Assembly (NCBI GenBank): GCA_016748015.1
Contig: JAAOMT010000786.1
Location: forward strand, 623,814 to 687,813
DNA length: 64,000 bases
DNA from: Geosiphon pyriformis uo1
Taxonomy: Eukaryota; Fungi; Glomeromycota
Direction: 5' to 3'
Below are positions 3,198 to 52,784 of this stretch, piece by piece. Position numbers and translations under genes: made by a program. The notes below the pieces were generated by a model, which saw only the letters and a list, made by a program, of their open reading frames with translations, had not been told where the DNA came from and did no database searches. The number at the start of each line of letters is the position of its first letter. Positions within the stretch are counted from its first letter, which is position 1.

Positions 3198-3279
3198 AAT
3201 AGTTTTTATTATAAAGCAAAACAAATTATATTAATATATAATATTACTTATTTTAAAAATTTAAATTAATTTATAAAAA

Positions 3280-16869: not shown

Positions 16870-17202
16870 TGTTGTTCTGACTGGCCCGAGTGGCTGGTCA
16901 CATGTAGAAAATACATGATTCGTGCCTACTTTAGATTATTTCTTTGATGTATAGCAGTAGGTAGCATTTGGACCTCACTCATTAATTAAAAAAAAAATAA
17001 CTAATAATATTTAAAAAATATATTTTATTATTAAAATTAATATTTAAAAATTATCTGGTTGGTTCTGAGTTGGTGAACTTTCTTGGTAAAGCAAAGTTTT
17101 CAAATAAGATATATATTTGGTTATAATATTATTTTAAATTTTAATATATATATTTTACTAATATTTTTATGAATTTTTAAAAACCAAATATATATATATA
17201 TA

Positions 17203-23630: not shown

Positions 23631-24498
23631 TGTTACTTATAGAAATATAGGAAATATATTAGCATAATTATTAGCCAATCAGAAGTAAGCATAGTAAATG
23701 TGGAATTCCAAGATTCCTCTCAGGAATTGCAGGATTCCAGAAATTTCAGGATTCCCGACAAGGAATTGCAGGATTCCAGAATTCTAGGATTCCTCTCAAA
23801 GGAATTGCAGGATTCCAGGAATTCCAGAATTCCTGTCGTGAAGAATCGGGAAATTGAGGAATCCCAATTATGTATATATAGTGGTAGTGTTAGAAACAGA
23901 AAAGACAGAATTGATACCACAGAATCTTTAGCCAAGAAACAAAATTATCAAATAAATAATTATTCCATATCTCAATTCACTCTCCACTATCAACACTTCA
24001 TGTTGATAGTAATTGATACTTAACCACACTGGAACAATAGCTCTTGATTATGGCTATTGACAGAATACTAATCTGCCAAACCACCTGGGCTTATTTCTTT
24101 TCTTTCTTTATTTTCTTGTATTTTCTTTTCTTTATTTTATTTGATTTGATTGTTGTGTATACTAATTGATTAAAAGATTAAGCACTGAGTTATTGACATC
24201 AAAGATAGCCTGGTAAAAGACCCAAAAATAAGGATAGGATTTTATATATTATCAGATAGCTTACTAGAAAGACACAACTGCCAGACTAAATCTGGCCACC
24301 ACACTGAGAAAGAAATTGGGAAAACAACTTAAGAATACAACCACTATCAACCTTATTGAATCTCTGTCCATTATACAAAAGACTCAACCAAAATCTTCAG
24401 ATAACAATACCTTTAGAACATTATCAACGGAACTAGCTTTAAGCACTAAGTTATGGGTTTGTTATTTAATTCAACAGCCAAAATACTCACCTGTAACA
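23631..24498 (+). repeat. 5' LTR of element 1b
   Basis: Direct repeat of 32905-33772 with inverted termini TGTTAC/GTAACA. CCAAT at ~23675 and TATATATA at ~23873. Confidence 0.97.
23699..23866 (+). repeat. GGAATT(G/C)CAGGATTCC-type tandem array in U3
   Basis: Repeated GGAATTCC/GGATTCC quasi-palindromes between the CCAAT and TATA motifs. Also present in the other 1a/1b LTRs. Confidence 0.9.
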
Positions 24499-24500
24499 TT

Positions 24501-24517
24501 TGGTGCTTCCTGTGAGG
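24501..24517 (+). promoter_or_regulatory. Primer-binding site (possibly elongator tRNA-Met)
   Basis: TGGTGCTTCCTGTGAGG lies 2 nt after the LTR. Element 1a has TAGTGCTCCTTGTGAGG. The tRNA identity is tentative. Confidence 0.8.
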
Positions 24518-24518
24518 T

Positions 24519-27500
24519 ATAATCCTACAGAAAACCAGCACCAACAACACCAAACCAAAAGTGGTAGAATCAGAAACCATAGAAGCAAACCATTTAAAAT
24601 TCGCGAAAGCTTTATTTCAACACTATTGTCAACACTTAGAATTAAACCACAATCATATATCTACTGAATCAGTCTTTAACTTCTACATCAACGAAAAAAT
24701 TTCCTCTTTGTTAGGAACACCAGTGAATACTGAATTAGCCAGGAAAACTTTCTACAGAGAATTAATTCAAAATACCAATCTGCCAACAAATCACAATTTT
24801 GCTTCCATCATTACTGAAATCAACAAAGAAATTGAACATCACATCCAACAAAGATATCCAATTACTTATGCCAATAAAGGCAAAGGGAAACTACAAACAC
24901 CAGCAGTAATACCCAAAAAGATACAACCACCCACTTAGAAGAAAACAAGAATTGAATCACCAACTGACCCATCCTATCACTACACACTGGGAAGTGTCAT
25001 CAATATAACATCAGCAAGTGCGTCCACATCAAATGTAATATCAACATTCGGATGACTCCCATTCCAAAGTAAACAAAGAAAAACAGATCTATTAGGACCA
25101 TATGGCGAATATTTTGAGGGATTTAAATCACAATCATCAATCCCATCAGGAATTTGATCACCACCACCTCAACCAGACTTTGGAACTGCTACTCTGTGGG
25201 AACTATCTGAAGAAGAAGAGGAAAAAGAATTGAAAGATCAAGAATTTATTTACCAAAACCTGATCACTGAAAGCCCGGAAGTTGAAACCCTGAATCTTCA
25301 AGCTTAGCAAAATTTAAATATAGAAAATTTGGAAATCAAAACTCTGAATCAGCAAAGGCAGAACAATCCAAACCCCGAATTAATTAATCAGCAAAACTTA
25401 CCTCTGGTAATTGTCATCAATCAACCACCAATTAATTCAGTAGCCAAACCTATACAGCAGCCATTTCAACTACCACTCCAACAACCAGGACAACAACAAC
25501 AACTGTTTCAATAGCCACCACAACAACCCAACTTAGATCCAATGGCCTATGCACCAATCACAAAACTTGACAACTTTACCGGCAAAGAGGATGATGCTCA
25601 GGTATGGCTGAATGATATAGAAAAAGCCATCGCAGCCAATGAATGGAATGATGCTCAAGCAATGCAAGCCATTCCATACTTTTTTAAGGATACTGCTGAT
25701 TTATGGTACCAGAGCTTGATTAATAAACCACAAGATTTTAATGCCTTCAAAGTGGAATTCTTAAGATACTTCAGCAACAATAACAGCATCAATAGTCTAG
25801 TCAATGCATTCACTACCATAAAACAAGGAGAAACTGAAACAGTCACAACTTACCTGGAATGCTTTCATTAAAACCTACGCCAAATTCAAGCAATTGACGC
25901 CAACTATTTCACAGCACCAAATCAGTTTATCCATGGCCTGTGCAGCAGCATCTTGTAACATGTACGTCCGTTGCATTCAGGTACCCTTCAAGACGTAGTT
26001 ACACGCGCCAGAGATTTTGAATCCACTGAGTCAGAGACTAACCACGCCCAAGCTGTTAATCTAGTAATAAACGGATTATCTAAATTGGATTCCAAATTAG
26101 AGAAGTTTAGTGAATCAATTAATAAGAGATTAAAAGGATACTTAGCTGACAATTACGCCATTTATCAGTCTCCACAATGATGCAATAATCAAAGAAACTC
26201 TAATTATGCCCAAAATCAACCATGTTCATCTTCATCAACCAATCAACAGTGGCAACAGGAAATGTATATCTGCCACTATTGTGGTAAACAAGAACATATT
26301 CAAATTGACTGTCACCAGCGTCTAAATAACCAATGATTGGGAAATCAATATCAAAACCCCGATTGCCAGTTCCAAACTCCGAATCATTATCCAAATTAGG
26401 GTTAAGACCAATATCAAAATAATTACCTGCTAATAACACAGCAACCAATCTATCAACCACCAGTATATCAACCTCCGATTTATCAGCTGTAGCCACAAGT
26501 AATATATCAACCACAGCCACCAATCATCTATCAACCCCAACCAATTTAAACACCACTCCAGAATCCAGCTCAAATGACATCAGGCAACTCTTGATCCAGA
26601 GTCACTCAAAACTGGAGATCGGCGATAGTTGTTTACCAACTGATTCTCAGTTTGCTAAACCCACCATCAGGATCACACACCCAGAATTTGGATACCAGTC
26701 GCATCCAAAACCCAAATTCCCAACACTATTTAAGTCTCCTGGTTAACCCAGAAGATGCCACATCCTACAACATGGAATCCAATCAGCACATACCTCCCAA
26801 CACGATTCCACTAGCAACCATCTCTAGTGACAAATCCCTAGCAGCCATCTTTCCTTTTGAACTCGAAGAAAACACACTGATACCATTATTTAGTAGAGCC
26901 ACCCTCGAAGAAAAACCTATAACAGCAATGTACACAGATGCCAGAGTTGATGGTCACTCCATCAAACTCATCCTAGATAGTGGATCAGCTGGCAGCATAA
27001 TCACAAGACAGCTCATAGATCAATTAGGTTGCCGAGTTGATCGAGCTGCCAGCACTAGAATCATTACTGCCGATGGTGCCACAAAAACACCTATCGGCAA
27101 GATAGATGATTTCCTTATAGAAATTAATAGCATCATAGTACTCATCAAAGTCATAGTAATGGATGCCACCCAATACCAAGCCCTAATTGGTAATGACTGG
27201 CTGTCCAAAACCAACGCCGTGCTCAATTGGACAACCCAAGAGTTAATACTCAGCCAGAATGGAAGACACACATGAGTACCAGCAATATGTGGCCATTTCA
27301 AGGCTACCAACAACATGGTACCACTAATCGACTTTGACAAGAAGAAACTAAAACCTACCTGGAAAGCCTACCAAGTGTTGTGGGCTGATGAAGAGCACAA
27401 TGAACTGCCACCAATACTCTTCTGGGACAACAACAACAAGGGAAAAGGGAAACAAAAGGAAGAACTTACCTGGGAAACTGATGACCTGATATGAACCGAC

Positions 27501-30500
27501 AATAACGAGAGCAAACCGACTTCAAGCTGGGAAAGGGAAGAAGACAAAAAAAATAAAATAAAAGGAAAAGAAAAAGAGACCACTCAAACCACCACTGCTT
27601 ATAAAATCTACACCATACCATAATGATCTACTTATCGTCAATTTAAGCTTATATGTGTTGATTGTGACAAGAAATTGTTGTCAATGGATGCATGCTGTGG
27701 GGACGATGAGAAATATTCAATGGCAACTAGGTTCTATTGCCACCCATGTGTTCTTAAATGCTTTGGAAGACCAAAACAAGTAGGGAAATAGAACAACCAG
27801 TTATGCTTAGCTTGTGAAGAGACTCTATTGGACAAAGGAATATGGCATGACATTCCTGGATGTGAAGGAACATGCAATGTATTGTGTCAATACACGATTC
27901 TGATTAACAACTGGATTAAAAAGGGGACACCAATTGAAGCCGCTTGGCAAAGAACAGTGTGACAATTAGACAGTTGTCCACATGACGATAACGAAATTTG
28001 GAAAATGACAACCACAAAAATTGAAGGCACATCGCCAGAAGAAATCTGGACAATTAAAAACAACCCACCAGAATCCATTGAGCTTGACTGGGACGCAAAG
28101 CCAGTCATAAATTTTCTAGAACCAGAAGAGTTCCATAAATACTACCAAAACTTGGCACCTACTAGAGAAGAGCAAGAACAATGGCTAGTACAGTTAAATA
28201 CAAGACTGTGTTACCATTGTTTAATTTCCAGTGACTTTGAATATTGTGATGATTGTGACCTTATTTACAATCCACCACCATGCATGATCTACTCGATCCC
28301 TGAAGAAGAAGAACCAATCAGCAGCTGTGCATCAGAATCAGAATCGCTGATCAATCGTGATCCAGACTCTAATGATAACAATGAAAACACTGGTTCCAGC
28401 TCCATTCAAAATGGCAATAATGACGAAAACAATTCAGACTCAGATTCAAATCCCGATTTAAACTATGAACAATATATTGCACTATTAGATCTCTCCAAGA
28501 AACAAGAGTTGAAATGGTATAGTGACAATAGGGAAGGTATTATGCCAGAACGTGTACATGATACTAATGCAGAGTTTGATCTGAGGTATCCAGGAAAAGA
28601 GATCATCAAATTGGAGCCACATTTACGCATCTGCATTGATCTGAAAATAGCACTAAAAATTCTGGCAACAACAATGGTTCAATTAGCATCTAGGAGTAGT
28701 CTAGCAAAAAGAGGAATTAATATAAGAGGAGGAATAATTGACGCAGGATATATAGGAAATATCATCGCAATGTTATAAAATGACTCAGAAAAGGCCTATA
28801 TAATAGAATCCAATGAAAAGATAGCACAGGCAATATTCCTGCCTCTGGTTAGAATAGCTCAGTTAGTATCAGTGGGAAAGAGGGAGAAATTAGGAATAAC
28901 AGCGAAAGGAATACAGAGATTTGGATTGATGGGTAAAATAGATGTACCAGTTAATATGGCAAAGGAAAAAATTGTTGGCCAAGGAGAAATTATCTCAACC
29001 GGTCAAGCTATTTCTATTCCACCATATAGCCAGTACATGTTAGCAATAGAAAGGAAGGAAAAGAAGCAAGAACAGATTTTTGAAGCTGAAGCAAACCTTT
29101 GTGAATCAGGAGAGATTGGACTGATCAATTTCCACATACCAGCCAAGAGCTATAGCTGCATAAAAATTCCCATCTACAACAACACTGGCAATATCATCAA
29201 CATACCAGAAGGAACTACCATCAGATATTTAACCACAGAAATAGAAGACCAACCACCAAACCTCATTCCAGACTTTCCACAACTTTGTGAATATGTTGAC
29301 ATCACATCACAAACAATCTATGGACGAGACAAATGTTATTTGCTCCAACCAGAACAATTGGAACAAATGAACATAAGAAACTTAGATCCACTCCAATGTA
29401 TACAGCTCAAGATATTACTCAACAATTTCAACGACATCTTTGCCAGCGAAAATGAGTTTGGCCAAACTGACATTATCCAGCATCAGATCAAGACTGGAGA
29501 TGCAATGCCAATCAAACAAAGAGCATACAGAGTGCTGCCAGCCAGTCACAAAATCATTTGTCAAGAGATAAACAGAATGCTTGACAATGGGCTAATTCAA
29601 CCATCAATGAGCCCATGGTCGTCACTAGTGGTACTCATCTATAAGAAAAATAGAAAAATCCGGTTTTGTGTAGACTACAGGAAACTTAATAGTGTAACTC
29701 GTGGAGACAGTTATCCAACTCCACAAATACAGAAATTATTCGATGCTTTCAGTGGGAACAAATAGTTCTCAACATTAGATTTGAACAGTGGTTACTGGCA
29801 AGTAGCCATGAATCCAGCTGACAAAGAGAAGACAGCATTTACTACTAGAGAAGGGAATTTTGAATTTGAAGTGATGCCATTTGGCTTAACCAATGCCCCA
29901 GCAACTTTCCAATGGCTAATGGAAATTGTTTATACTGGTTTATTGTGGAAATCAGTAGTTGTATACTTGGACAACACCAATGTATTCTCAAAGACATTTG
30001 ATGATCATCTTCATCTTCAACAAGTGTTCAAAAGACTAAGAAAAGCAGGACTAAAGTTAAATGTGACAAAGTGCTTCTTTGGCAAGACAAAACTCAAATT
30101 CTTGGAACACATAGTCAACAAAGATGGCATCAAAACAGATTCAGAGAAAATAGAGATAGTAAAGAACTTTCCAGTGCCAACCAATATAACAAAACTGAAA
30201 TCATTCTTGGGATTCACTAGCTACTATTGTCATTTTATCAAGAACTTTTCCAAGATAGTGCAGCCACTCAACCAACTGCAAAACAAAAATACGAAATATG
30301 AATGAACAGAAAGTCAACAAGAAGCTTTTGATATTCTGAGAAAAAAGCTCATCCAAGCTCTAGTACTGATCTATCCAGATTACAGCAAACCATTCATCAT
30401 CACCACTAATGCATCTGGCCAAGCATTGAGAGCAGTATTATCTTAGAGGACTGGACAGCAGAGAACATCCAGTAGCATATGCCAGCAGAGATTTAACACC

Positions 30501-30762
30501 AGCTGAAAAGAACTATGGAACACCGGAACAAGAACACTTAGCAATATACTGGGCCATCATGAAATAGAAAGAATACTTGAGCCAGAAGTTTGAAGTATAC
30601 ACAGATCACAAGGGATTAACATCACTCCAAAAACAAGAATTTGGAGATGGAAGACAGTCAAAATGGAAAATGGCACTCACACCATACAATTATACTATAC
30701 ATTACAAAAAAGGAAAAGACAATGGAAATGCTGACGGTTTATTGTAAATAAGACAAATCTAA
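24519..30762 (+). pseudogene. Gag-PR-Cys-rich domain-dUTPase-RT-RNase H polyprotein of element 1b
   Basis: ORF fragments from 24561 to 30305 are all in one frame. Capsid FTGKEDDAQVWL, knuckle CHYCGKQEHIQIDC, protease LILDSGSAGSII, dUTPase, RT (VMPFGLTNAPATFQ, YLDN) and RH. One 2-bp deletion at ~30450. Confidence 0.92.
28540..28935 (+). pseudogene. Trimeric dUTPase domain within the polyprotein
   Basis: Motifs AEFDL, ASRSSL, GIIDAGYIG, EKIAQAI and G..RFG correspond to dUTPase motifs I-V. Confidence 0.92.
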
Positions 30763-30825
30763 GAACATTTCAACCCAAAAATATAATAAAACCAGAACAA
30801 TACCAACAAAAAAATACAACAAAAG

Positions 30826-32207
30826 ATGAACATACAAAAATATTAACAATTGCAACATTATCTAAACACTCAACAGTTCAAAAAGAATTTATCTCAAATG
30901 GAATGAAAGAGTATCAAACAACAATCAAAATATTTTATCACTCACCAAAATATACTTTATCGGAAAAATAGAAGGGATCCAGATCAACCAACCAGAGTAA
31001 TTACGGAGCCAGAAAAAGAGACAATATTATTCAACATGCACTCAAATCCAACAGCAGGACATTTTTACAAAGAAGCAACCATGGAAAGAACCAGAAAAAG
31101 ATACTATTGGCCATCAATGTACCCAGACATCATTCAATATGTTCAAAATTGTGATGCTTGTCAGCGAAGAGGAGGAACAAGACCCAGTGAACCATTAAGA
31201 CCAATCAAAGTGGGACAACCATTTGACCGTATTGGAATTGATTTAGTCAGACCATTAACAATTACCAACAGAGGAAACAGATACATAGTGGTAGCCATGG
31301 ACTATCTCACTAAATGGCCAGAGGCAAAAGCAATTCAAAGAGCGGATGCAGAATTCATTGCCGAATTCATTCATCAGGATTTGATTTATCAACATGAATG
31401 TCCAAAAGAATTATTATTAGACCAAGGAACTTATTTTGTGAACAAACATTAACAGAATTGAGCCAAAGATTCGGAATCAAGAAACCATTATCATCACCAT
31501 ACCATCCACAAACCAATAGATTAGTAGAAAGATTCAACAGAACATTGTGTGAAGCAATAGCTAAACTCAGCCAAAAAAACCAGAACAATTGGGATTTGTT
31601 AATACCATCAGTACTATTTGCTTATCGGACAATAAAGCAAGATACTACACAAACAACACCATTTGAATTAGTATATGGTAGAACAGCAACACTACCAGTA
31701 GAAATAAAAGTCAGCACATACCCAACCAAACCAATAACAGAAGAGAATTTCAAAGATACATTGTTGAGAAAAACATATGACTTAATGGAAACATTGGAAA
31801 ACAACCAAAGAAGAGCAGCTGATAATATTTAAAAGTTACAAGAAAAACAGAAAAAAAGACACAATAGTTAACTACCAGACAAACCAGTTGAATTCAAGAT
31901 TGGAGACAAAGTATTACTATATTGTACCAAAGCAGAAAAACAATGGAGTGGAAAATTCGACCCCAAATGGGACGGACCATTTCACATAGAAGAAATTTTA
32001 AGAAATGGAGCTTACAAATTAAGATTGAATAACAAAATTTTAACCAAAGCAGCACATGGAGATCGACTAAAGCCATATCGTAACATCACATTACCATCTA
32101 CCAGTAATATTCCACAATTAAGAGTACAGAGAATACTAGTCCAACCAGATGAGATTCCATGAGATCTGGAACCAATTGTTATTATCAACAACAACATGTT
32201 AAATTGA
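30826..32207 (+). pseudogene. Stand-alone integrase ORF of element 1b
   Basis: ATG MNIQKY; HHCC (H..GH..YYWP..CDAC); DDE core (GIDL, DQG, ERFN); GPY/F module WDGPF. No chromodomain is evident. Confidence 0.9.
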
Positions 32208-32261
32208 TCAATTAAAAGAATATATAAAGATATAGTAGACATAACAGGAAATATCAAAAAA

Positions 32262-32891
32262 ATGGAAATTACAGACAACATTCACATATTAGCACAACAA
32301 CTCTTTCAATTAATCCAACACCAGAAAATGGAGATTACAATCAATCAACAAACCATTCAATATCAAGATACTAGAAAGACATTGCAACTCAGAACACTGA
32401 AGAAAACTGAAAATATGGTGGACAAAATCATGGTGAAAGTAAAATTAGCAATAAAAGAATCGACAAAAGAGTCACTATATCAAGAGTTAACTAAAGAAAC
32501 TTGGAATTGGTAGATACAACAATTTCCATGAAACTATTGTTATTTTTACTTGGGACAACATGTAAATATCCAGAATCTATATACGGATAAAACAAAGCGA
32601 TTATTCGACAAAAGAATACTACAACAATTAGAACATTTTGTGGGAAAGAACAACTTATCTACACAAGCCCGAGCCATATACCAAATACACACAGCATTTC
32701 AGGATAAACCAGAAATATTGCTCAACAGAGCAATGGATATGGTTACCAGTAATCAATTGGGAAAAATTACCAATGCTTAATTTGAAGAATTACAGACCCA
32801 AATAACACAAGTAATTCTCGAAAACGAAATCCAGGAAATACTTTAAGAGGGGGAATTACATGAGTTGGATTTCGATGAAGCTCAATATTAA
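32262..32891 (+). pseudogene. ORF3 of element 1b (~209 aa), unknown function
   Basis: One 630-nt frame from ATG to TAA, interrupted only by transition-type stops. Homologues are present in all four elements. Confidence 0.82.
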
Positions 32892-32904
32892 AAGGAGGGA
32901 ATAA
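32891..32904 (+). promoter_or_regulatory. Polypurine tract
   Basis: AAAGGAGGGAATAA immediately before the 3' LTR. Confidence 0.85.
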
Positions 32905-33772
32905 TGTTACTCATAGAAATATAGGAAATATATTAGCATAATTATTAGCCAATCAGAAGTAAGTGTAGTAAATGTGGAATTCCAGGATTCTTCTCAGGAA
33001 TTGCAGGATTCCAGAAATTTCAGGATTCCTGACAAGGAATTACAGAATTCCAGAATTCCAGGATTCCTTTCAAAGGAATTGCAGGATTCCAGGAATTCTA
33101 GGATTCCTGTTGTGAAAAATTGGGGAATTGAGGAATCCCAATTATGTATATATAGTGGTAGTATTAGAAACAGAAAAGACAGAATTGATACCACAGAATT
33201 CTTAGCCAAGAAACAAAATTATCAAATAAATAATTATTCCATATCTCAATTCACTCTCCACTATCAACACTTTATGTTGATAGTAATTGATACTTAACCA
33301 CGCTGGAACAATAGCTCTTGATTATGGCTATTGATGAAATACTAATCTGCCAAACTGCCTGGGCTTATTTCTTTTTTTTCTTTATTTTTTTGTATTTTTT
33401 TTTCTTTATTTTATTTGATTTGATTGTTGTGTATATTAATTGATTAAAAAATTAAGCACTGAGTTATTGACGTCAAGGATAGCCTGGTAAAAGACCCAGA
33501 AATAAGGGTAGGATTTTATATATTATCAGATAGCTTACCAGAAGGGCATGACTGCCAGACTAAATCCGGCCACCATACTGAGAAAGAAATTGAGAAAACA
33601 ACTTAAGAATACAACCACTATCAATCTTATTGAATCTCTGTTCATTATACAAAGGACTCAACCAAAACCTTCAGATAACAATACCTTCAGAACATCATCA
33701 ACGGAACTAGCTTTGAGCACCAAGTTACAGGTTTGTTATTTAATTCAACAGCTGAAATAATCACCTGTAACA
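32905..33772 (+). repeat. 3' LTR of element 1b
   Basis: 868-bp direct repeat of 23631-24498. Confidence 0.97.
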
Positions 33773-37199: not shown

Positions 37200-38151
37200 T
37201 GTTACTGGAGGTTTTTGGTCTCTTTTCTTGAATGTTGTTAATGTTAATTTGCTGTGAATTCACATTCTCAGGAAATAGTTGGACCTCCAGTAACTGAATT
37301 TATCTTTAAATTATCTCTTATAATTTGAACTGCTGGGCTTATAAGTGGAATGGCCAATTCTGTGCCAGTTATTTTATGTAGTTATGTTGTAGTAAACGTC
37401 AACTCTTTTCCAGGAATTGCTTGTCTGAAAGCTCACTAAAAATTGTGTAGTTATTTTGCTATGAAAATCAACTCTTCTACAGGAATCTCGTCTATAGGCT
37501 ACCCTAATGATTGTAATAAGAAAAATAAAAGAAAATAAAAGAAATGTAAAAGAAATAGAATTTTGTCAAGAGAAACGTTTTCTATCCAGGCCTGAAGTCA
37601 CTAACAGTTTATTGAAATTGGTAGCTAATTAATTTTAAAACATTAGTTGTGTTGAGGGAATTTCAAGTGTAATAATTTAAGAATTTGGTTTTTGAATATT
37701 TAATTTTTATTTGATTTTGTAAAAGATAATTTGTTTCAATTAAGATATCTAACATAAGATACTATGGTAAGATACTATAAGAAGATACATTTTCTTGAAG
37801 AAAAAAGCTCTTTTTTTATACAACTTTTTGTAGTACTAGTCTTTAAACTTGTACTTTTCTTTTTGCTATAATTTGGGTGAACTAAAGATACATTTCGGCA
37901 AACTACAAATTATTTCACTGAACTATTGATTATTTCGGCCAATTTTCATTAATTTCGGCAAATTTTAACTATGTTAAATAGTTCAGGATATTGTGTAATT
38001 TAATCATCTTAATTTTTAGAGTACAAATCGGATTATTGATTGAGTAATGATTTTTGATAATTTGATTAAATAATAAGTAATAATCGAAATAATAATAATA
38101 TATGCTAATTAATAATAGGAATTATGAAGATAATTTTATGTTAATTAATAG

Positions 38152-38859
38152 CTAAGATTCTACTGGTAACATAATCTTCTCCTCAAAACTGAGCTTTATC
38201 AAAGTCCAAGCACTATCTGTAATATTAAAATAGTGGTCCAAGATAATTAAAGTAATCTGGTCTAAAAATTGTTGAAATTTTAGTTCTGTGAGCTTTCCAA
38301 TGTATTGAATCTTTATTGGATGAAGTATTGGGTTTTGTAAGACGTTTTTACAAGTGTTAAATAAATCATAGAGTCTAAATGCTGCTCTAAGTTTATAGCA
38401 AATGTTTGTTGGTCCAGCTGTTGTCTTAAATTCATTGTGAATTTGTTTTTGTATAGCCTCAGAAGTAATGTTGGTTGCTTCAAGTTCTAGTTTTCATTTA
38501 TAAAGTGTTTTTTCAATATGAAAATATCTATATATAAGAGTATGTTCATTGTTCTGTTTATTGAGAAATAGTAGAAGTTTTTGTTGCATTGTGGCATTTG
38601 ATAGAATGTCAATAGAGGCAGATAAAAAGTTCTCTTTTAGTGTTTGCTTCAAAAGTTTTGGTAATTGATTTTCAGAGTAACTTTTTGTTTTTCTTCTATA
38701 GGGGTGATAATTCTGAGAATTATTTACTACTGGAGCTGTGATTTCTTTTTGAATGTAATTAATTTGACTTCTATTAATCATTATAAATAAGTCAAAAAGT
38801 GTTTTCAAAGCTAACATTAATTTTTGGGATATTTGTTGAATATTTCGGGGAATAATCAT
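38152..38859 (-). pseudogene. ORF3 of element 2a
   Basis: MIIPRNIQQISQKLMLALK..YRYFHIEK..RAAFRLYDLF..IGKLTELKF. Homologous to 50511-51230. Confidence 0.82.
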
Positions 38860-39022
38860 GATAAAAATGACTAATTAATAAACAAAATTTGAAAAAAAAT
38901 AAAGAAAATTATTTTTGGATATAAGATTTTTATTTGTTTTTGGTTTTGAATATTTCTTCTAATTATTTACTATTTTTGATTTATGTTTTGTGTATTTTAA
39001 AGGAGTTTGTGAAAATGTTAAA

Positions 39023-40407
39023 TTAAGTGTTCAAGTTTGGTTGTTGTTCTATTATAATTATTGGTTTTAAATTTTGGAGAATATCTTCAGGATTAATTAA
39101 AAGAGAATGTGTACCAATTTGTAGAATTAATGGTTCAAGATTGTTTTTGGAATGATAGTGTTTCAATCAATTTCTATGTGCAACTTTTGCTAGTACTTTG
39201 TTATTAAGTCTTAACTTATATGATCCATTGCCTAGAATTTCGTAAATATAAAATAGTCCATCCTATTTATGTTCAAATTTTCTACTTTACTGTTTTTCAG
39301 CCTTTATTCTGTATAAGAGAACTTTATTTTCAACTTTAAATTTGTTGGTAACTGGTGGCAGTTTGTTGTCATGTTTTTCTTTTTGTAGAGCTTGGAAGTG
39401 TTCAATATGAGTGACTGCTATGTATCTTTTTTCTTTCAATGTACTAAGAAGTGTGTAAGCTTTTCTTTGGAGTGTTTTTTGAAAGTTTTTTTCATTGATT
39501 AGTTGCACTGGGTATGTTTCCACTGTGAAATTAATTGGTAATATTGCTGTCCTTCCATAAGTAAGATCAAATGGTGTGTGTTTTATAGTATCTTGTTTTA
39601 GTGTTCTGTATGCTAGTAACACTGATGGAATAAAAATATTCTATTTTTGCTCAAAATTTGTTGAGACTTTGGCTAATGATTCACATAATGTTCTGTTAAA
39701 ATGTTCTACAAGTCTATTTGTTTGGGGGTGATAAGGTGATAAAAAAAGTCTTTTAACATTAAATTATTCACAAATTTCTTGTATTAGGTTGTTCACAAAA
39801 TGTGTTCTTTAATCAGATAAAAGCTCAATTGGGCATTCATGTCTACAAATAATGTCTTCATAAATGAAATTTGCTACTGATTTTGCATTTGCTTTTTGAA
39901 TGGCTCTAGCTTTAAGCCATTTGGTGAGATAATCTACTGCAACTACAATATAGCAATTTTCTTGAATTGTGATAAGTAGTAGTCTGACTAAATCAATTCC
40001 AACTCTGTTAAAAAATTGTCCAACTTTGATTGAATTTAAAGGTTCTGTGGAGCAAGTTTTTTCTCTTCTTTGACAACTATCACAAGATTCTACATATTGT
40101 CAAATGTCTTTTTGCATGTGAGACCAAAAATAATGTTTAAGAGTTCTTTGGATTGTTCTATCTCTTCCCAAGTGTGCTGAAGATAGATCTGTGTACATGT
40201 TATATAGGATTGTTTTTATTCATTTTCTTGTACTAATCTGAATAATTGGTTTGGGTTTCTACAATTTTTGTAATAAATTTTGTTGTGATGTATGAAATAT
40301 TGTCTGAATTGGTGTTGTAATTAATGTTTTTTACTTGGAAACCAATTTTTTGGTATGGTAAAAGTTTCCAAATAGTTTTTAAGATTGTTGTAATTTCTGG
40401 GATCTAT
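39023..40407 (-). pseudogene. Integrase ORF of element 2a (start ATG>ATA)
   Basis: (M)DPRNY start; LLAYRTLKQDT..TPFDLTYGR. Colinear with 51353-52738. Confidence 0.85.
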
Positions 40408-40470
40408 TATTGTTTTGTTGTTTTGTTGTTTTGTTGGTAGTAGTAAGTTATAGTAGATTTGTTAATAGTG

Positions 40471-43400
40471 TTAATTTTATCTTATTCTTAAAAGACTATT
40501 AACATTAGTGTGTAATTTTCTTGGTTTGTGGTGTACAATATATTTGTAATCTGCTAGAAAATCATTTCATTGAGACTGTTTGGCACTTTGTTTAGTTTTC
40601 TTTTTATTAAGCCATTTGAGACCAATATTGTTAGTTATAATGTCAAATTCTTTTCCATCCTTCAAATATTGTTGAAAATGTTTAAGAGCCCAAATGACTG
40701 CAGCAGCTTTTAATTCAGTTGAGTCATATTTGAGTTCTGTTGGCTTGAGTGTTCTGCTAGCATAGGCAATGACTTGCTCCTGGCCATTTTCATCTAATTG
40801 TGATAGGATGGCACCAAAAGCTATGTGTGAAACATCAGTGGCTAGTTGGAACTATTTGTTAAAGTCTGGGTATGCAAAAACTGGAGCTGTTGTCAATTTT
40901 GTTTTAAGGGTTTCAAAAACTTTCTGTTGTTCTTTAGTCTATTAATATGGCATGTTTTTGTTGGTAAGATAGTTAAGTAGTTTGGCAATTTCTAAGAATT
41001 TTTTTATGAATTTTCTATAGTAAGAGACTAATTCTACAAATTCTCATAGCTCTGTGGTATTTTTGGAAGTTTGAAAGTTTTTGACAACACTGATTGTTCC
41101 AGAATTTGGTTTGACTCCATTTTTGCTAACAATGTGTCCAAAAAAGATTAAGCTTGTTTTTCCAAAGTGACATTTCTCAATGTTTAACTTTAATCCTGCT
41201 TTCCATAATCATTGAAAAACTTCTCACAAGTGAATAAGATGAGCTTCAAAGCTTGGTAAGTATACATTAGTGTTATCAAGATAAACAACTATTAATTGCC
41301 ATAAGAGTCCTTCATATACAATATTCATGAGTTATTGAAATGTTGTTGGTGCATTGCAGAGTTCAAAAGACATAACATTGAAATTATAGTTCTCTTCTTA
41401 AGTAGTGAATGCTGTTTTGGATCGATTTTTTGGGTCCATTTTGACTTGTTAGTATTTACTTTCCAAGTCTAAAGTTGAGAAGAACTTGGCTTTTTCTAAG
41501 GCATTCAGCATATCATCAATTCTTGAAAGAAGGTAAGCATCTTCAATTGTCATGCTGTTGAGCTGATAATAATCTACACAGAATCTGATTTTTTCATTTT
41601 TCTTTTTAACAAGAACTATTGGTGAAGTCTAAAGACTTCTTGATGATTAAATCAATTCGTTATTAAGCATTCTTTGGATCTCTTCTCTGATAAATTGGTG
41701 GCTAGCAGGTAAAACTCGATAGACTTGTTGTTGTTTTGGTGGAGCATCTCCTGTGTGGATCTAATATTGAACAATATCAGTTTTTCCAAGATTATTGTTG
41801 TCTTTTGCAAATATATCTGCAAATTCAGCTATCAATTGCTTCAATTGTTTTTGTTGTTGGGGTTCTAAGAGACCCATGTTGATTTAAGAGAGTTTTTCTT
41901 CTAAAAAATGATAGTTTTCAGTGATAGGAATGATGTTTAGATTAGGTAATAGGGTATGTCTTACAATTTCGATGAAATTAGAGACAATTTGGAAGTTTTC
42001 ATCTTGAAAGATATTGCTGTGTATGATTCTAATTTCTAATTTATTTAATAAGACAATAGAATAATTATTGGGGTTATAGAATGTAACTTGAAATTTTTTC
42101 ATTCCTTTAGGAATATAAACGTTTAGAATTGAAATTTCATGCTTTAAACAGATTTGTTCATTGGATTCAAAAATTTGTTGGGTAGTAGTGGGTTTTAAGC
42201 AAGTGTAAATTTCGTGATGTTTACCAAAAAGTGAAATGGTAATTGGTTGGAGAAGTTGAAGAATCTGGTGAGATTCATTCTGTACATTGAAAGCTATGTT
42301 TACTGGCACTGTAAATCGTCTAATTGAACCAAAACTTTGAGTTTTTTTTTCACTTTTTTCTAATTGTTCTCTGTTTTTAACTGATTATAAACCCGAAATG
42401 TTGATTAAGAGTAGGTAAATTGCTTGGGCAATCTTTTCAGCATGTTCAATTATGAATGGTTTGTCTGTTTTATTCTGTAACATGATAGTAATGTTTCTAG
42501 TATATCCTGTATCTATGACTTCTCCTCTAACATTGATTTCTTTGCTTGCCAATAATGATCTGGATGCAATTTGAATCATTGCTCCAGGTGAAATTTTAAA
42601 AGTGATTCTGAGATTGATTTTTGTTAAAAACTTTGGTTGGAGAACCAAAGTATCTTTTTCTGAATATTTTAGATCATATTCAGCATCAATCTCATGTGCT
42701 TTTTCTGGTCTGATTTTTTGGCCATGGTTGTCAAAATATTTAAGTTGTAAGGGTGATTGATTTTCAAGAAGATAGATAAGGGTGGTTGGTAGTTCTTCTA
42801 CCAGTTCAGATACTCCAAATTCGATTTCATTTTCATCATTCTCATCTGGCAGGGGAATGCTAAGAGCATAACATTCTAAACACCATTGGTTATCACAAAG
42901 CATAACACATTCTTTATATAATTGAATGTTTATTTGCTTTAATTATTAAATTTGAGTTTCTTTGGTTGGGTATGTATAACTTGCAATTTGGTGGTAGATT
43001 TCTACTTCATTTTCATAATCAAATCCAGCTAATTCCATAGTATACTCAATATATTTAGCTTTTTTTATTTGGCAGACATCTTTTTGAGTGGCTCTATTAA
43101 TTAATGTCATTGCTAAGTCAAAAATTATTTCAGCATCATGAGAGTAGTAATAGAGTTTATTGAAGGCACTGTTGTATGCTGCATTAAATAGTGTTCCTCT
43201 TCTGACTTTTTCTGAAATTGATAGAGCATATTGACATGTTTAATTACATACTCCTCCTCTCATTACAACATCAATCCAGTTGTATTCTTCTGATAGTATA
43301 TCTCCACATGTGAGACAAGGAATGTTGTCTTATTTTCCACTTCTTTTTGGAGATCCAAATCGTTCTCTATGGCATGTTTTACAGAAATAGCAGGTGCAGA

Positions 43401-46102
43401 TTTCATATTCCTTTTCTGGAGATATACAAGCTCCCATAGATAAAAGCTTCTTCTTGCAATCTTTGTATTTTAGTGAGATATATGATGGTTTTTTTCATGG
43501 TTCTGGTGTGGAATATCTAACTTTCTTCTATCCTTTTGATTCTTCAAAAATCTTCTGTTCTGTTTCTTCAGCCCAATTGGATGTTGATCAAAGGGCTATG
43601 TAGGTTTCAGTAAGTGGTATTTCCTTCTCTTTCTCAAATTCGAATACTGGAGCTTTTTCTGATCATTTGTTGAAAGTACCACAGATTGCAGATACTATAA
43701 TGTATTGTCTTTGGTATGATATTTTAAGTTCCTGAGTTTCCCAGTTTAAGTTTGCATTGACTTTAAGAAGCCAATTATTCCCAACAAGAGCTTGGTATTG
43801 GGGTGCATCCATGACTAGAATTTTGACTGAAATGGTAATTTCATCAATAGTAAATGGGAAGTTATCAATTTCTTCTGCTGGAATTTTTTTCATGCCATCA
43901 GCTGTAACAATTACAGTCTGAGCTGGTTTGTCAACAGTTTTTTGAAGTTGCTGCATTAATTGGTAAGTGATAATACTTTTAGTGGATCCATTGTCTATGA
44001 TTAATCAGATGGGTTTTCCCTCTACTGTAGTTTCAGTATACATGGCAGTGATAGCTTTTTGTTCATTAGCTGCTGTATTGCTAAGCAAGAATGGTAATTC
44101 ATTTGCTTCAAATTTGAATGGAAATATATCTGAAAGGTTGGCATTTTGGACAATTTGAGCTGGTGAAATGGTATTGTTAGAAGGGTTTGATTTTGGTGCT
44201 GCAGTTTCACCTTCAAAAAGTGCAGTTTGTTGAAAATTCGATTCTTCTTGCATTGTTAAATAACTGGGTTGAATATGAAACTGAGTGGGTCTTTGTTAAA
44301 CAAAATTTCGAAAAACTAGTTGATTATTGTAGTTAAATCTGTTGTTGTTTGTTAAAAAACGATTTTGTGGTGTGAATTGGTTTTGTTAGATTAATCTTCT
44401 GACTGGTACTTAATATTGTTGAGTGGGTGGTGTCGGATATTGTTGAATTGGTAAAGGTTGTGGAGTTGGTTAATAGTAACTGTTTTGATTTTGTGGTCTT
44501 GGTGAATAATAAGTTGGTAATAGAGATTGATAGTAAAATTGTTGTGGTAAAAGGTAATGTTAATTACTCCTGTTTTGTTGGTTTTTTTGCAATTTCCTAC
44601 AATCTTGTTTCCAGTGTTCTGGAATTCTATAATAATAACAATTTTGAGATTGGTTGTTGAATGGTGATCCAAAGTTGTTTTGATTGCATTGTTGTGGTGG
44701 TTGATATCTTTGTAGTTATTGCTATTGTTGTTGTTGGTTTGTAAAGTAGCTTTCAATCTTTTTTGTGAGTTGGTCTATTTTTTTTTTAGCTGTTGAGCTG
44801 GTTTCTTCAATAGCTAAGTTGACAAGTTTGATGTGGTTTGCTTCTTCTATTGCCATTTCATAGTTTTTTGCATGTCTAATGGCAGTTGTTAAGTCTTCTG
44901 GAACATGTGGACAAACTTTTTTAATGAGTTTGTCTTTTAATCCTGCTATAAACTAATCCAAAATCTGGGCATTGGAATAGTATTTATTGGTTTTCAATTA
45001 TCAAATTTGTCAAAAAAGTTTATTGAATCTTTCAAGATAAGTCATGACAGTTTCAGATGTTTCTTGTTTAATATTGTAAAAGCAGTTTCGGAAAGTAATA
45101 GAGATATTGTTGTTAGTGAATTGTTGTAAGTAAACATCTTTGAATGCTTGCCAGTTCCCAAATGGTTCTTCTAAGTTTTCAAACCATTCTCTTGCAGTTT
45201 CTTGGAGAAAGTATGGGATTGCTTTGAGCATTCTTGCTGTATTCCAACTATTTGTATCTTCTGCTTTTTGAACTTTGTAAAGCCATTCTTGAGGGCTGAT
45301 ATTATTGTCTTTACTAGTGAATTCTGAGATTTTTGCAATATAAGCAGTTGCTATTTCTTCTTTGTTTTCTGTAGTTTTTTTTTGTTCTGATTCAGTTTCT
45401 TCACTTTCCAAGTTTTTTGAATGATTACTTTCATTTTTCTGTAAGTAATCAATAATATTGGTGCTTGTTAATATGGGTTTCTGTTGTTAAGTAGGACTTT
45501 TAGGTGACTGAAAATTTTTTAGTCTTAAGAAACAGATAAGTGGTGAATTTGGTGTTTGTGATTGAGCAAGTGAAATTGAAATAGTGTAATAGAAAGTGGT
45601 AATTTGACACTGGTTCCTTGTTCAGATGTTTACAAGTGTTTGGCAGTTGTCTTTGGTAGTATTGGTGTATTTGAAGTGGTTCTTGAATATTGTTTCACTT
45701 TTTGTTTGCCTTTGTTGCTTGTTTCTGTTTCTGATTTAAAGTCAAGAGAGTATTTGGACTGTACTGGGTATTTTTCTTCACAATACTCAATAATGTTAAA
45801 ATTAAGTTTTTGGAAGTAGGTAGCAAGTGTTTCACTGTTCAGGTCTTCTGTTTCCAATTGTGAATAGTGTACTAAATTATTGTAGAGGTTGTTTTTGACT
45901 TCTGAGATGTTGTAGTTTCCAAAAAAAATAGTTGTTGATGCGATTTTCAATATATTGGTATAGTGATTTCTTGAAAATTTCAATTCCGTCTTGGATGTTG
46001 AATCTTTGCTTGCAGTGTGTATAAATTGATTGATAATACTCTAGAGTTGTTGTGTCTGGTGTGGTTGCCACTTTGAAGTTGTTTTTGCTGTGTTGTTTTC
46101 GT
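40471..46102 (-). pseudogene. Gag-PR-Cys domain-dUTPase-RT-RH polyprotein of element 2a
   Basis: ORF fragments from 45411 to 41884 are in one frame. Capsid AKISEF..PQEWL; dUTPase AEYDL/ASRS/VIDTGYT/KIAQAI; RT and RH motifs at 40500-41800. Confidence 0.9.
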
Positions 46103-47088
46103 GAGAAAGCACCAAATGTTACTGAAGGTTTTTGGTCTCTTTTCTTAAATATTGTTAATGTTGATTTGCTGTGAATTCACGTTCTTAGGAAGTAGTTGGA
46201 CTTTCAGTAACTGAATTTATCTTCAAATTATCTCCTATAATTTGAACTGCTGGGCTTATGAGTGAAATGGCCAATTCTGTGCCAGTTACTTTATGTAGTT
46301 ATGTTGTAGTAAACATCAACTCTTTTTCAGGAATTCTTCATCTGGAAGCTCACTAAAAATTGTGTAGTTACTTTGCTGTGAAAATCAACTCTTCTACAGG
46401 AATCTTGTCTGTAGGCTACCCTAATGATTATGATAAGAAAAGAAAAAAAAAATAAAAGAAATGTAAAAGAAATAGAATTCTGTCAAGGGAAACGTTTTCT
46501 ATCCAGGTCTGGAGTCACTAACAGTTTATTGAAATTGGTAGCTAATTAATTTCAAAACATTAGTTGTGTTGAGGGAATTTCAAGTGTAATAATTTAAGAA
46601 TTTGGTTTTCGAATATTTAATTTTTATTTGATTTTATAAAAGGTGATTTGTTTTAATTAAAATATCTAATGTAAGATACTATAGTAAAATACTATGAGAA
46701 AATACATTTTTTTGAAGAGAGAAGCTCTTCTTTTATACAACTTGTTGTAGTACTAGTCTTTAAACTTGCACTTTTCTTTTTGCTACAATTTGAGTAAACT
46801 AAAGATACATTTCGGCAAACTACAAATTATTTTACTGAACTATTGATTATTTCGGCCAATTTTCATTAATTTCGGCGAATTTTAACTATGTTAAATAGTT
46901 CAGGGTATTGTGTAATTTGATCATCTTAATTTCTAGAGTACAAATCGGATTATTGATTGAGTAATGATTTTTGATAATTTGATTAAATAATAAGTAATAA
47001 TCGAAATAATAATAATATATGCTAATTAATAATAGAAATTATAAGAGTAATTTCATGCTAATTAATAGCTAAAATTCTACTGGTAACA

Positions 47089-48145
47089 GTGTTGTCTTCT
47101 TTGCCAGAAAATTTTTCTAGCTTTGTGATGGGTGTGTATGCCATTTGTATGATCAGTTGTTAGTATAGTGGTTGAAATTGTTGTTGTGGCTGTTGAATTG
47201 GCTGCTGTGGTTGTTGAGATGGTTGAAGCAGTTGTTGAATCAGTTCAATAACTGGTTCAATTGATGGCTGATTGATAATGACTACTGGAGGTAAGTTTTG
47301 TTGATAAATTGTTTTGGAGTTTGGATTGTTTTAAGCTTGTTGGGTTTAAATGTTTGGAGTTTCAACTTCTGGATTTTCTAGGATCAGGTTTTGATAAGTA
47401 AATTCCTGATCCTCACTTTCTTCTTCTTTTGATTCTGGTACTTCTCACGAACTTGTAGTTCCAAAATCTGGTTGAGGTGGCAGTGATCAAAATCCTGATG
47501 GCATTGGTGATCACAATTTAAATCCTTCAAAATATTTACCATATGGTCCTAATAATTCTGCTCTTATTTGTTTATTTTGGAATGAGAATCATTCAAAGGT
47601 TGATGTCACATTTGATATGGATGTATCTACTAAGGAGATATTGATAGCACTTCCTAATATATAATAGTATGATGAGTTGGTTGGAGATTCAACTCTGGTT
47701 TTCTTCTAAGTAGGTGGTTGTATCTTTTTGGGTGTTACCACTGGTGTTTGCAATCTTTCTTTGTCTCTGTCTGCATAGGTAATAGAGAATTGTTGTTAGG
47801 TGTACCTTTTAATAGTTTAATTGATTTCCTTGATAATTGGTGTAAAACTGTAGTTTTTTGGTAAGCTGGTATGTTGAAACAATTCTGTATAGAAATTTTC
47901 TCTTGCAGATTTAATGTTAACTGTTTCTCCTAAGCAGTCTGTGATTTTATTATTGATGTAAAAGTTAAAGACTGATTCTGCTGGGAAATAGTTGTTGTTT
48001 AATTCTAACTGTTGGCTGTACTGTTGAAACAAGGATTTGGCAAATCTTAAGTGGTTTGCTTCTATGATTTCTGATTTTGCCACTTTTGGATGATTGTTGT
48101 TAGTGCTGGTTTTTTGTAGGATTATACCTCACAAGGAGCACTAAA
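47089..48145 (-). pseudogene. Element 1a PBS and 5' Gag region
   Basis: AKSEIIEANHLRFAKSLFQ matches the ORF at 24561; MAYTPITKLE capsid start at ~47144. Confidence 0.88.
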
Positions 48146-48969
48146 TGTTACAGATAATTATTTGGGGTCTTAAAACAAATAACAAACCCATAACTTAATG
48201 CTCAATTGATGATGTTGGTTTCTAAAGATATTATTATCTGAAGGTTTTGGTTGAGTCCTTGGTATAATAGAAAGAAATTCAATAGTTGTTTATTCATAGC
48301 TTCCCAGAATTGCAATTCTGTCAATTTCTTTCTTTAGCTTAATGGTTGGTACTTCTCTGGTAAGTAATCTGTAATTTCTTTACATGCTCTACCCACTCAC
48401 AGGGGTCTTTTACCAGGCAATTTTTGATGTCAATAACTCAGCACTTTAATTTTTTAATCAATTAGTACACAACAAAAAAAATAAAAAAAATAAAAAAATA
48501 AGCCAAGACAATAAAAATTAGTATCCCATCAATAGCCATAATTAAGAGCTATTGTTCCAATGTAGTTAAGTATTAATTTTTATTAACATAAAGTGTTGAT
48601 ATGAAAGAGTGGATTTGAGATAATAAATAATTATTTATTTGATATTTGTGATGTAAAAGGTTGCTTAAATCAAATCTAAACTGCAAGGTCTGTCTTTTCT
48701 ATTTCTAATGCTATTAATATATATACATAATTGAGATTCCTTAATTCCTCAATTCTTTACACCAGAAATTTTGGGATTTCTAGAATCCTGCAATTCCTTT
48801 GAGAAGAATTCTGGAATTCTGGAATTTTGCAATTTCTTGTATGAAAATTCTGAAATTTCTTGAATTTTGCAATTCTTTTGAGAAAAATTTTGGAATTCCA
48901 CATTTACTATGGCTACTTCTGATTGGCTAATTTATATGCTAATATACTTCCTATATTCTATAAGTAACA
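48146..48969 (-). repeat. 5' LTR of element 1a
   Basis: TGTTAC..GTAACA termini; repeat of 19045-19792; the PBS is adjacent. Confidence 0.95.
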
Positions 48970-49356
48970 ATAGCTATTAACAGAATACTAATTTCTTATT
49001 TTTTTATTTTTTTTTATTTTTTTTTGTTTTATTTTTTTGTTATTTACTAAATAATTAAAAAAAATTCAGTGTTAAGTAATTGATATTAAAGATAGCCTGG
49101 TAAAAAATCTGAGAATAAGAATAAAAATTTAAGAATAGCTTACCAGAAAGACACAACTGTTAAAATAAACTGGCTATTATGCTGAAAAAAAAATTTATAA
49201 AAGAAACTATTAATTAAATCTTTGTTTATTATACAAAAAATTTAACCAAAACTTTCAAACTTTAAAACCTTTAGATATTACCAACATAACCAACTATTGA
49301 GCACCAAATTATGGGTTTGTTATTTGTTCTAACATTCCAAATAATCACCTGTAATA
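48970..49356 (+). mobile_element. Old solo LTR, 3' half
   Basis: Resumes the family-1 LTR at ATAGCTATTAACAGAATACTAAT and ends ATCACCTGTAATA. Right flank ATAT. Confidence 0.85.
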
Positions 49357-49455: not shown

Positions 49456-50510
49456 TTTAATTGAATTAAACTGAACCAAACTTTAGATGTTGTTTAAATT
49501 CAGTTCAAATTATGAACCAAACTTGAATTGAATCAATTTTTTAAAGTAGGTTCAGTATTACCGGAGGTTTTTGGTCTCTTCTTAGCTCTTGTATGTTTGT
49601 TGTAATGCTGTTAATTCACAATTATGGGAAGTGTTTGAACCTCCAATAACTGAATTTATCTTCAAATTATCTCCTATAATTTGAACTGTTGGGTTTATAA
49701 GTGGAATGGCCAATTCCGTGCCAGTTACATTGTATAGTTATGTTGTAATAAACATCAACTCTTTCCCAGAAATTGCTCATCTGGAAGCTTACTAAAAATG
49801 TGTAGTTACTTTGCTGTGAAAGTCAACTCTTTTACAGGAATTCTTGTCTGTAGGCTACCCAAATAATTTATAATAAGAAAAAAAAGAGAATAAAAGAAAT
49901 GTAAAAGAAAAAGTAAAACTTGATGATTTATGGAAGTCATTTCAGATCCAGGTCTGGAAATGCTTTAACAGTCTATTGAAATTGGTAGCTAATCAATTTC
50001 AAACTGTTAGTAGGAATTGGTTAATTTCAAGGAAAATAATTTAAGAATTTGGCTTTTCAAATTTATTTGATATTTATTTTGTTTTTGTGTGTAAAGAATA
50101 ATTTTAATTATTAAATCTGAAGTAAGATACATTTTCTCAAAGAGAAAAGCTCTTCTTTTATATAACTTGTCATAATACTATTTTATGAACTTGAATTTTG
50201 CTCTTTTCTATAATTTTGCTAAACTAAAGATATATTTCTGCAAACTACAAGTTATTTCTGCAAACTATTAGATATTTTGGTAAACTATCAATTATTTCGG
50301 CAAATTTCTACAAATTTTGGTGAACTTTTGAATGTTACATATTTCAGGGTATTACATGATTGATCATCGCACTTAGATTATATTTGTGTTATGTACAAAT
50401 TGGGTTATTAATTAAATGATAATTTCAGACATTTTGCTAATGTAATAAGTAATAATTTGAAACGATAATATATGCTAATTAATGATAAGATTTATAAGGG
50501 TAATTTCATG

Positions 50511-51230: not shown

Positions 51231-51352
51231 TATAAGAGATTTGAAAATAAAAGAAAATTATTTTTGGTGTATGGGTTTTTATGTTATTTTTGTTTTGTTT
51301 TTGTGAGATTGTTTCTAAATTATAATGATATAACTATAATAATAAATTTAAA

Positions 51353-52738: not shown

Positions 52739-52784
52739 TGTTTGTTGTTTTGTTGTTAATTCAAATGGGTGTTGTTTTTATGTT

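Follow-up and report, generated by a model that had tools for sequence, protein, structure and literature searches.

Self-comparison of the window, a 64,000-nucleotide stretch of the Geosiphon pyriformis genome, revealed nested LTR elements belonging to two families. Element 1b of family 1 (forward strand) and element 2a of family 2 (reverse strand, 37200..47088; primer-binding site (PBS) at 46114, GTG at 46071) are inserted in element 1a of family 1 (reverse strand), whose 5' part (47095..48972) comprises the LTR, the PBS (48143), a GTG (48083) and the capsid ATG (47144). Element 2b of family 2 (reverse strand, 49558..59445) adjoins this group; its PBS at 58456 contains an ATG (58444), and it has a GTG at 58414 and its capsid ATG at 57682. 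Within 19043-59445, 4-bp target duplications flank 1b and 2b, and also 2a if CpG decay is allowed for. Decay in this region consists of C>T and G>A changes in both CpG and non-CpG contexts and has hot spots, which account for three identical stop codons carried by 1a and 1b. Every copy examined is dead. Elsewhere in the window, decayed LINE-like elements in both orientations (1-17050) include an ORF1 with an RRM (E 3e-5) and the start of an endonuclease-like ORF2. A palindromic AT-rich stretch lies at 2179-2678, a partial family-1-like LTR fragment (48988-49358, forward strand) adjoins 2b, and a tandem repeat with a unit of about 114 nt is found at 60635-60949. No tRNA genes were detected in the 64-kb window.

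The sequence of element 1b is that of a Ty3/gypsy retrotransposon that has decayed and that encodes a dUTPase: the element has an LTR pair with a target duplication, a PBS and a polypurine tract (PPT), and the gene order gag, protease, reverse transcriptase (RT), RNase H, integrase. The 5' LTR (23631..24498, 868 nt) has TG...CA ends, a 4-bp target duplication (ATGG), a TATA-like box at 23873 and an AATAAA at 23951, and is 93.5% identical to the 3' LTR (32905..33772). The 18-nt PBS (24501..24518), which follows the LTR and has a sequence that would pair with a tRNA 3' end, contains an in-frame TGA at 24513. The segment 25542..26594 begins with the capsid AUG and encodes a Ty3-type capsid (Pfam Retrotrans_gag, E 4e-8; a weak Ty3_capsid match starts at residue 4), a CCHC zinc knuckle recognized by eye and a P/Q-rich spacer. 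It is followed by pol (26595..32904), in which Pfam identified protease, dUTPase, RT and integrase, with the dUTPase between protease and RT, and RNase H was recognized by eye; the PPT lies at about 32890. Since gag and pol share a single frame (24561-30302) that runs through RT without a frameshift, either of the two starts discussed below would give the whole polyprotein. All stops in this frame fit C>T or G>A decay, and the pol frame reaches the PPT, with no env frame. A Cys-rich region with several CxxC pairs lies between protease and dUTPase (27276-28200, forward strand), and by eye the integrase tail contains a GPF-type motif followed by some 200 further codons up to the PPT (~32200-32890, forward strand).

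The two families probably use different primer tRNAs because their 18-nt PBS tails differ (24501-24518 on the forward strand versus 58456-58439 and 46114-46097 on the reverse strand); that of family 1 appears to resemble the end of an elongator Met or Ile tRNA. The U3 region of family 1 (23720-23860, forward strand) carries degenerate repeats of about 20 nt of the GGAATT/GGATTCC type, with a weak Rfam match (E 0.19); no Rfam match was above chance. Scans of metagenome contigs with the PBS pattern and the capsid, and of viral contigs with RT, gave no match. Copy statistics were drawn from the four copies in the window, public gene models and one DNA run, from which 1,940 contigs, possibly of the window's own sample, were surveyed for variants with coverage ending at 24555. 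In three protein searches, all hits carrying a species name among the 120 matches listed in each were hypothetical proteins of G. pyriformis; one hit, without a name, was the window's own. The evidence comes from a single species.

An AUG-poor extension upstream of the capsid

Positions 24519-25541 of 1b form one frame of 341 codons that lacks methionine and is continuous into MAYAPI at 25542. This Met-free frame had been described in the first-pass annotation, which took it to be conserved from the ATA at 24519; the frame itself was confirmed, whereas its conservation does not extend to the ATA, as relatives use three frames before the GTG at 24561. Counted from that GTG, the extension comprises 244-327 residues (about 250-330 codons) across both families. 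Five stops interrupt the extension frame of 1b, and relatives carry W, Q or R at these sites.

Our recount agreed with the earlier figures of four ATG trinucleotides in the 1b extension and 15 in the 330 nt that follow 25542. For the extension 14.5 would be expected, and none of 500 dinucleotide shuffles was as low. The shortage is shared by 1a (5 versus 12.2 expected), 2a (1 versus 7.6) and 2b (2 versus 8.4), and in both families it stops exactly at the capsid ATG. The count of three ATGs before the capsid of 2b likewise holds if that at 58444 is included with the two in the extension; as stated earlier, ATG 58444 is ACG in 2a, and the site falls inside the PBS. In the 120 listed relatives of family 1, Met occupies the capsid position in 51 of 61 sequences, and it reaches at most 14 of 109 in any extension column after the PBS. 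The 120 listed for family 2 give the same picture, again with no majority Met; the column just before the capsid Met departs from it, as one subfamily has its Met there, one codon earlier. Both families retain the capsid Met, with M at 151 of 176 family-1 motifs.

The comparison of observed with expected ATGs that had been proposed as a check was also made against decay-matched controls, and the deficit persists. In codon shuffles preserving amino-acid and codon content (2a was left out because of frameshifts), out-of-frame ATG plus ACG triplets were depleted in 1b (5 observed, 12.6 expected), 1a (4 and 11.4) and 2b (3 and 12.4; p<=0.002 each). The signal of ATG alone was weaker (p 0.04-0.14), and CTG, GTG and TTG were not depleted. 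Eight of nine control ORFs from the same elements were normal for ATG plus ACG, the integrase of 1b being low (p 0.009). Gene models gave a similar picture: residue pairs that create ATG or ACG triplets occur in the N-terminal domains of the two families at 0.46 (95 sequences) and 0.23 (102 sequences) of expectation, and in the capsids at 1.00 (127 sequences) and 1.08 (58 sequences).

The four ATGs of the 1b extension (24868, 25033, 25052 and 25102) are all out of frame. One of them belongs to a CGA>TGA stop and another precedes a column with G>A changes in 28 of 80 cases; for the remaining two, the residues that follow show G>A at rates of 0.26 and 0.34, which exceed the control median of 0.18 but stay within the control range; this range reaches 0.45 and is derived from columns overlapping the test columns. 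All four are also ATG in 1a. This sharing need not be ancestral because 1a and 1b share three stop codons as well, and it is no proof of decay. The four ATGs fit CpG decay, and the active element was plausibly AUG-free in this region.

Coding capacity and structure of the extension

Only transversions were used for pN/pS in order to avoid C>T decay. Between 1a and 1b the extension has a pN/pS of 0.36 over 308 codons (28 synonymous and 56 nonsynonymous differences; binomial p 3e-5), with 0.29 for the N-terminal domain and 0.22 and 0.46 for the linker; the capsid value is 0.16, and LTR controls range from 0.61 to 2.12, or at the widest from 0.56 to 2.4. Between 2a and 2b the corresponding values are 0.26 and 0.47 for the extension and 0.17 for the capsid. 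All five indels that distinguish the extensions of 1a and 1b are multiples of three. The dN/dS analysis suggested in the first-pass annotation hence points to purifying selection on a coding extension, which would have been translated in active elements.

The extension consists of an N-terminal domain of about 105-111 amino acids (24561..24893 in 1b, forward strand) and a low-complexity, acidic, S/P/T- and P/Q-rich linker (24894..25541), whose length varies from about 120 to 215 residues across the families. Cross-profile searches matched the N-terminal domains of families 1 and 2 with E values from 4e-10 to about 1e-6, as top matches among about 100 sequences (reversed control, E>3), and hhalign aligned 91 columns (E 0.002, probability 13%). 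With an identity of 25-27%, and on the strength of these profile matches, the two N-terminal domains are homologous. The family-2 extension had previously been considered to have the same AUG-poor property and a different sequence; the former proved correct, but the first ~105 amino acids are related to those of family 1. The idea of a family-specific accessory domain has to be abandoned for the same reason: the domain is common to both families.

Structure prediction, also called for earlier, yielded a putative four-helix domain: AlphaFold2 placed four helices at matching positions in both families (pLDDT 82.5 and 81.8), each input alignment including sequences of the other family. The domain had no match in curated Pfam (best E 0.002-0.006), in a PDB sequence search (E 0.21) or, for the model, in Foldseek at E<=0.001, and the ESM Atlas returned unnamed or weak leads, or none. 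With regard to a retroviral MA fold, the observations were four predicted helices and a best VIA Z of 7.3, to unrelated helical chains. Such a lack of family or fold matches does not make the fold new. A profile search retrieved 201 matches, and the ten unnamed ones checked among the best 150 of these 201 were all from G. pyriformis. Myristoylation at Gly2 is typical of retroviral MA, though not universal; Gly2 is absent here, where both families have A, V, T or I directly after the GTG. Because the Ty3 capsid profile and the AUG at 25542 start at the same place, the shorter product would be a plain capsid-first Gag.

A conserved GTG as candidate start codon

Relatives agree from V-A-E-S-E onward, the V corresponding to GTG 24561 (24561..24563, forward strand). 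This candidate GUG start codon has the context AAA GTG G, with A at -3 and G at +4, and the heptamer AAAGTGG is identical in all four window copies and hence in both families (GTG 24561 in 1b, GTG 58414 in 2b). GTG accounts for 22 of the 138 Val codons in these ORFs. Among relatives, the position is V in 129, M in 9 and I in 0 of 143 family-1 sequences and V in 113, M in 10 and I in 2 of 127 family-2 sequences, and only two of eight other Val columns show any M. Decay of this Val to M rather than to I points to a GTG codon. A combination of A at -3 and G at +4 has been described as a favourable start context in fungi (PMC5487733), and GUG is reported to rank second after CUG among near-cognate starts (PMC5666671).

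By contrast, the ten codons preceding the GTG are found in three frames among relatives. The frames read from family-1 models, which like those of family 2 are ab initio gene models and not DNA, number 72, 13 and 11 of the 120 listed (14 unclassified, 10 without anchor). In family 2, 31, 10 and 9 were counted among the 50 informative of 127 models, and the ACG is in frame in only nine; 2a and 2b differ by one base between PBS and GTG. When mapped on a quick tree of 92 family-1 N-terminal domains (upstream residues excluded; one strong branch), the frame label required four changes, as opposed to 16.4 in shuffled data, with none of 200 shuffles as low. Such clustering of frame labels by lineage indicates that the frame offsets were inherited by amplified lineages. 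Since its frame differs between subfamilies, the spacer from PBS to GTG (24519..24560, forward strand), which includes the ATA, is probably untranslated. In the third frame, as far as can be deduced from protein, the PBS is followed by a TAA that corresponds to 24520 and closes everything upstream, so that the GTG is the first identifiable in-frame near-cognate codon there.

The use of three different frames by related copies speaks against initiation at ATA 24519 or at the family-2 ACG, as had been assumed in the first-pass annotation; moreover, ATA 24519 lacks a G at +4. The start of the long Gag is therefore most likely GTG 24561 (58414 in 2b) rather than ATA or ACG, as judged from conservation and context. 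Two-start Gag proteins of the glyco-Gag type share this arrangement, in which a conserved near-cognate codon with a strong context precedes the gag AUG in the same frame.

Two further candidates were rejected on the basis of the variant survey. Among the 1,940 contigs, no variant of at least 8% was present that would make ATA 24519 a decayed ATG, nor was there a T>C variant of at least 8% at 24513 that would make the PBS TGA a decayed CGA.

The LTR leader

Two upstream AUGs are present in all four family-1 LTRs, downstream of the TATA-like box at a position relative to transcription that depends on a deduced start site. The first (24000..24023) lies in weak context and opens a uORF of seven codons; the second (24050..24169), in strong context in three of four LTRs, opens one of 25-39 codons over a T-rich tract. 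Scanning past these conserved AUGs would have to rely on reinitiation, on leaky passage or on an intron in the 5' UTR. They count against simple scanning, and the family-1 leader is not AUG-free. In family 2, one leader ATG lies about 30 nt past the TATA box and a second is present in 2a alone; at the sites of the remaining leader ATGs, copies may have ACG, ACA, ATA or AAG instead.

An in-frame AUG at or upstream of the PBS had been regarded as incompatible with non-AUG initiation. Such an ATG does exist in U5 (24453..24455; ATG in three of four LTRs, ACA in the 3' LTR of 1b), but after 20 codons its frame runs into the PBS TGA 24513, and in two subfamilies the ATG is not in frame. It reads as a probable decayed ACG because relatives show mixtures of M and T at this codon (T 9, M 5, R 1) and of W, Q and R in the next frame (Q 11, W 7, R 1); no variant at 24453-55 was seen on the 1,940 contigs, which gives no support to such decay.

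No significant RNA structure was predicted around PBS and GTG (z -1.5 to +0.8). All four 5' LTRs contain a 50-nt tract with 35-38 T about 350 nt before the PBS (24091-24177, forward strand, in 1b), followed by a TACTAAT branch-like motif in family 1 and by TAG/CAG in family 2. The tract may mark where a 5'-UTR intron ends or may serve in polyadenylation; a conserved splice donor for such an intron was not found. Several gene models contain a 24-nt 'intron' across LTR end and PBS, which we dismissed as probably the caller's way round a stop; 24 nt is too short for a fungal intron.

Discussion

Non-AUG initiation combined with leaky scanning to the capsid AUG, as put forward in the first-pass annotation, is still the best reading of this locus. 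It survives the tests on selection, AUG deficit and Met conservation, with GUG taking the place of ATA or ACG as start. We thus regard it as probable that active elements made a GUG-initiated long Gag and, by leaky scanning, an AUG-initiated short one. Ribosomes would scan in a cap-dependent manner from the LTR leader, and a minority would start at GUG 24561, which lies in a strong context, to give the long Gag. Most would pass through an AUG-free stretch of about 1 kb and initiate at the capsid AUG (25542), giving the short form, such that two products could arise from one RNA. By analogy with murine leukemia virus (MLV) as well as rice tungro bacilliform virus (RTBV), long chains might amount to a few to about 10%. 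The long form is predicted to carry the four-helix domain on a flexible linker at the N-terminus of the capsid. The domain, present on few capsid subunits, would most likely act as a sub-stoichiometric targeting or host-interaction module.

The main rival, which we consider unlikely, is that the extension is spliced to an AUG-bearing LTR exon. An intron ending at AAG/TG would remove U5 and PBS, and the spliced mRNA would be translated but not reverse-transcribable. A splice variant of this type is reported for PEG10 besides its CUG start (PMC2800197). Splicing explains the conservation of AAAGTGG and the free upstream frames equally well, and it finds further support in the strong AUG at 24050 that is conserved in family 1 and in public gene models that splice at or near 24561. 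However, AAG is a rare splice acceptor, the 40-60 nt before AAG/TG are A/C-rich and have no pyrimidine tract, the gene models use many different junctions, and the two families have no upstream AUG exon in common. Splicing also leaves unexplained why AUG is avoided in all frames over 1 kb and why the capsid Met is conserved. A distinctly improbable model has the long Gag begin at GUG or at a nearby near-cognate codon and derives the short Gag from an RNA of its own, whether internally initiated or spliced, or supposes that no short Gag exists. The capsid-start Met could then be a cleavage-site or structural residue, and truncated Gag of Ty1 does originate from an internally initiated RNA (PMC5408680). 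Yet a separate RNA needs no AUG-free kilobase, and in both families the deficit ends right at the capsid ATG, as has been described for scanning across ORFs I-II of RTBV (PMC5902531).

Initiation further upstream, at ATA 24519, at the PBS ACG or, given read-through of the PBS TGA, at the U5 AUG 24453, appears very unlikely. The frame is open from the ATA in 1a, 1b and 72 of 120 listed family-1 models, and ATG 24453 lies in that frame in three of four LTRs and is the start in 12 of 120 models. On the other hand, amplified subfamilies have other frames before the GTG, the ACG frame is restricted to 9 of 50 informative family-2 models, the ATA is without the +4 G, and the U5 codon varies as expected for a decaying ACG. 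There is hardly any room for the view that the extension is an untranslated long 5' leader or a relic. Two thirds of it are of low complexity, and the LTR is likewise AUG-poor (5 versus 14.7 expected), but pN/pS is 0.22-0.47 in every segment of both families, indels keep the frame, and the domain is maintained at ~25% identity between families.

The arrangement proposed here, a GUG-initiated Gag above a leaky-scanned one, resembles several known systems. The glyco-Gag of MLV consists of the whole Gag plus an extension (PMC5120145), translated at ~6.7% of gag (PMC5778647). As with the candidate GUG of our elements, its near-cognate start has a favourable context and precedes the gag AUG in the same frame; it differs in that it uses CUG, adds 88 residues and belongs to an enveloped gammaretrovirus, whereas here a GUG precedes 244-327 residues with a soluble-looking helical domain. 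The extension of gammaretroviral glyco-Gag provides a membrane anchor and glycosylation. No long hydrophobic run is visible in the translated extension described here, and 1b, a Ty3-type element without env whose pol frame runs to the PPT, does not encode a gammaretroviral glyco-Gag proper. For PEG10, mutagenesis demonstrated two starts for a Gag-derived protein, a CUG and, downstream of it, an AUG (PMC2800197); PEG10, however, is a host gene with a 34-residue extension, while the present elements were once mobile and high in copy number, have a ten-fold longer extension and avoid AUG in all frames. RTBV shares a non-AUG first start, an AUG-free stretch and leader uORFs: ~10% of ribosomes take the first start, and the lack of internal AUGs over ~900 nt lets ribosomes scan to later ones (PMC5902531). 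Unlike the single frame found here, with no significant structure between PBS and GTG, RTBV has separate ORFs I-II-III and a ribosome shunt over a stem-loop.

In fungi, conserved near-cognate starts with A at -3 and G at +4 beside uORFs are described for cpc-1, the extension of which has a dN/dS of ~0.35 (PMC5487733); cpc-1 encodes a host transcription factor, and its starts are CUG, AUU and ACG. As proposed for our elements, Ty1 yields a second, shorter Gag product, p22, from an internal AUG, but it does so from an internally initiated RNA, p22 misses part of the capsid, and Ty1 is a copia-type element (PMC5408680). Tuber Tmt1, Postia PosPlaTy3-5 and Phanerochaete Gypsy elements have a dUTPase between protease and RT (PMC2864245), in the same position as in 1b; the available part of that report describes no non-AUG Gag extension.

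A dUTPase in fungal gypsy elements is thus already known (PMC2864245), and so is the two-start strategy, from a retrovirus (MLV), a pararetrovirus (RTBV) and a domesticated gene (PEG10). We found no report of a non-AUG gag start in an LTR retrotransposon in a literature search largely confined to openly accessible papers. It is tempting to speculate, at somewhat less than even odds in our judgement, that an autonomous fungal Ty3/gypsy lineage evolved the glyco-Gag strategy independently and that a long Gag with an undescribed four-helix, matrix-like domain aided its amplification. The conserved GUG and the AUG-free kilobase would then set the ratio of long to capsid-first Gag, and the domain would have helped the families to reach hundreds or thousands of copies in Geosiphon, in whose genome LTR elements are reported to make up 41.2% (PMC11952901).

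One consequence concerns annotation: because gene callers had no AUG at their disposal, hundreds of G. pyriformis 'hypothetical proteins' have arbitrary spliced N-termini. If the proposed mechanism is true, these elements would be mobile LTR retrotransposons that make a Gag isoform from a non-AUG start, with an unannotated protein domain exposed at the matrix position of a fungal Gag, and the ribosomes of an arbuscular-mycorrhizal lineage are likely to accept GUG as a start codon.
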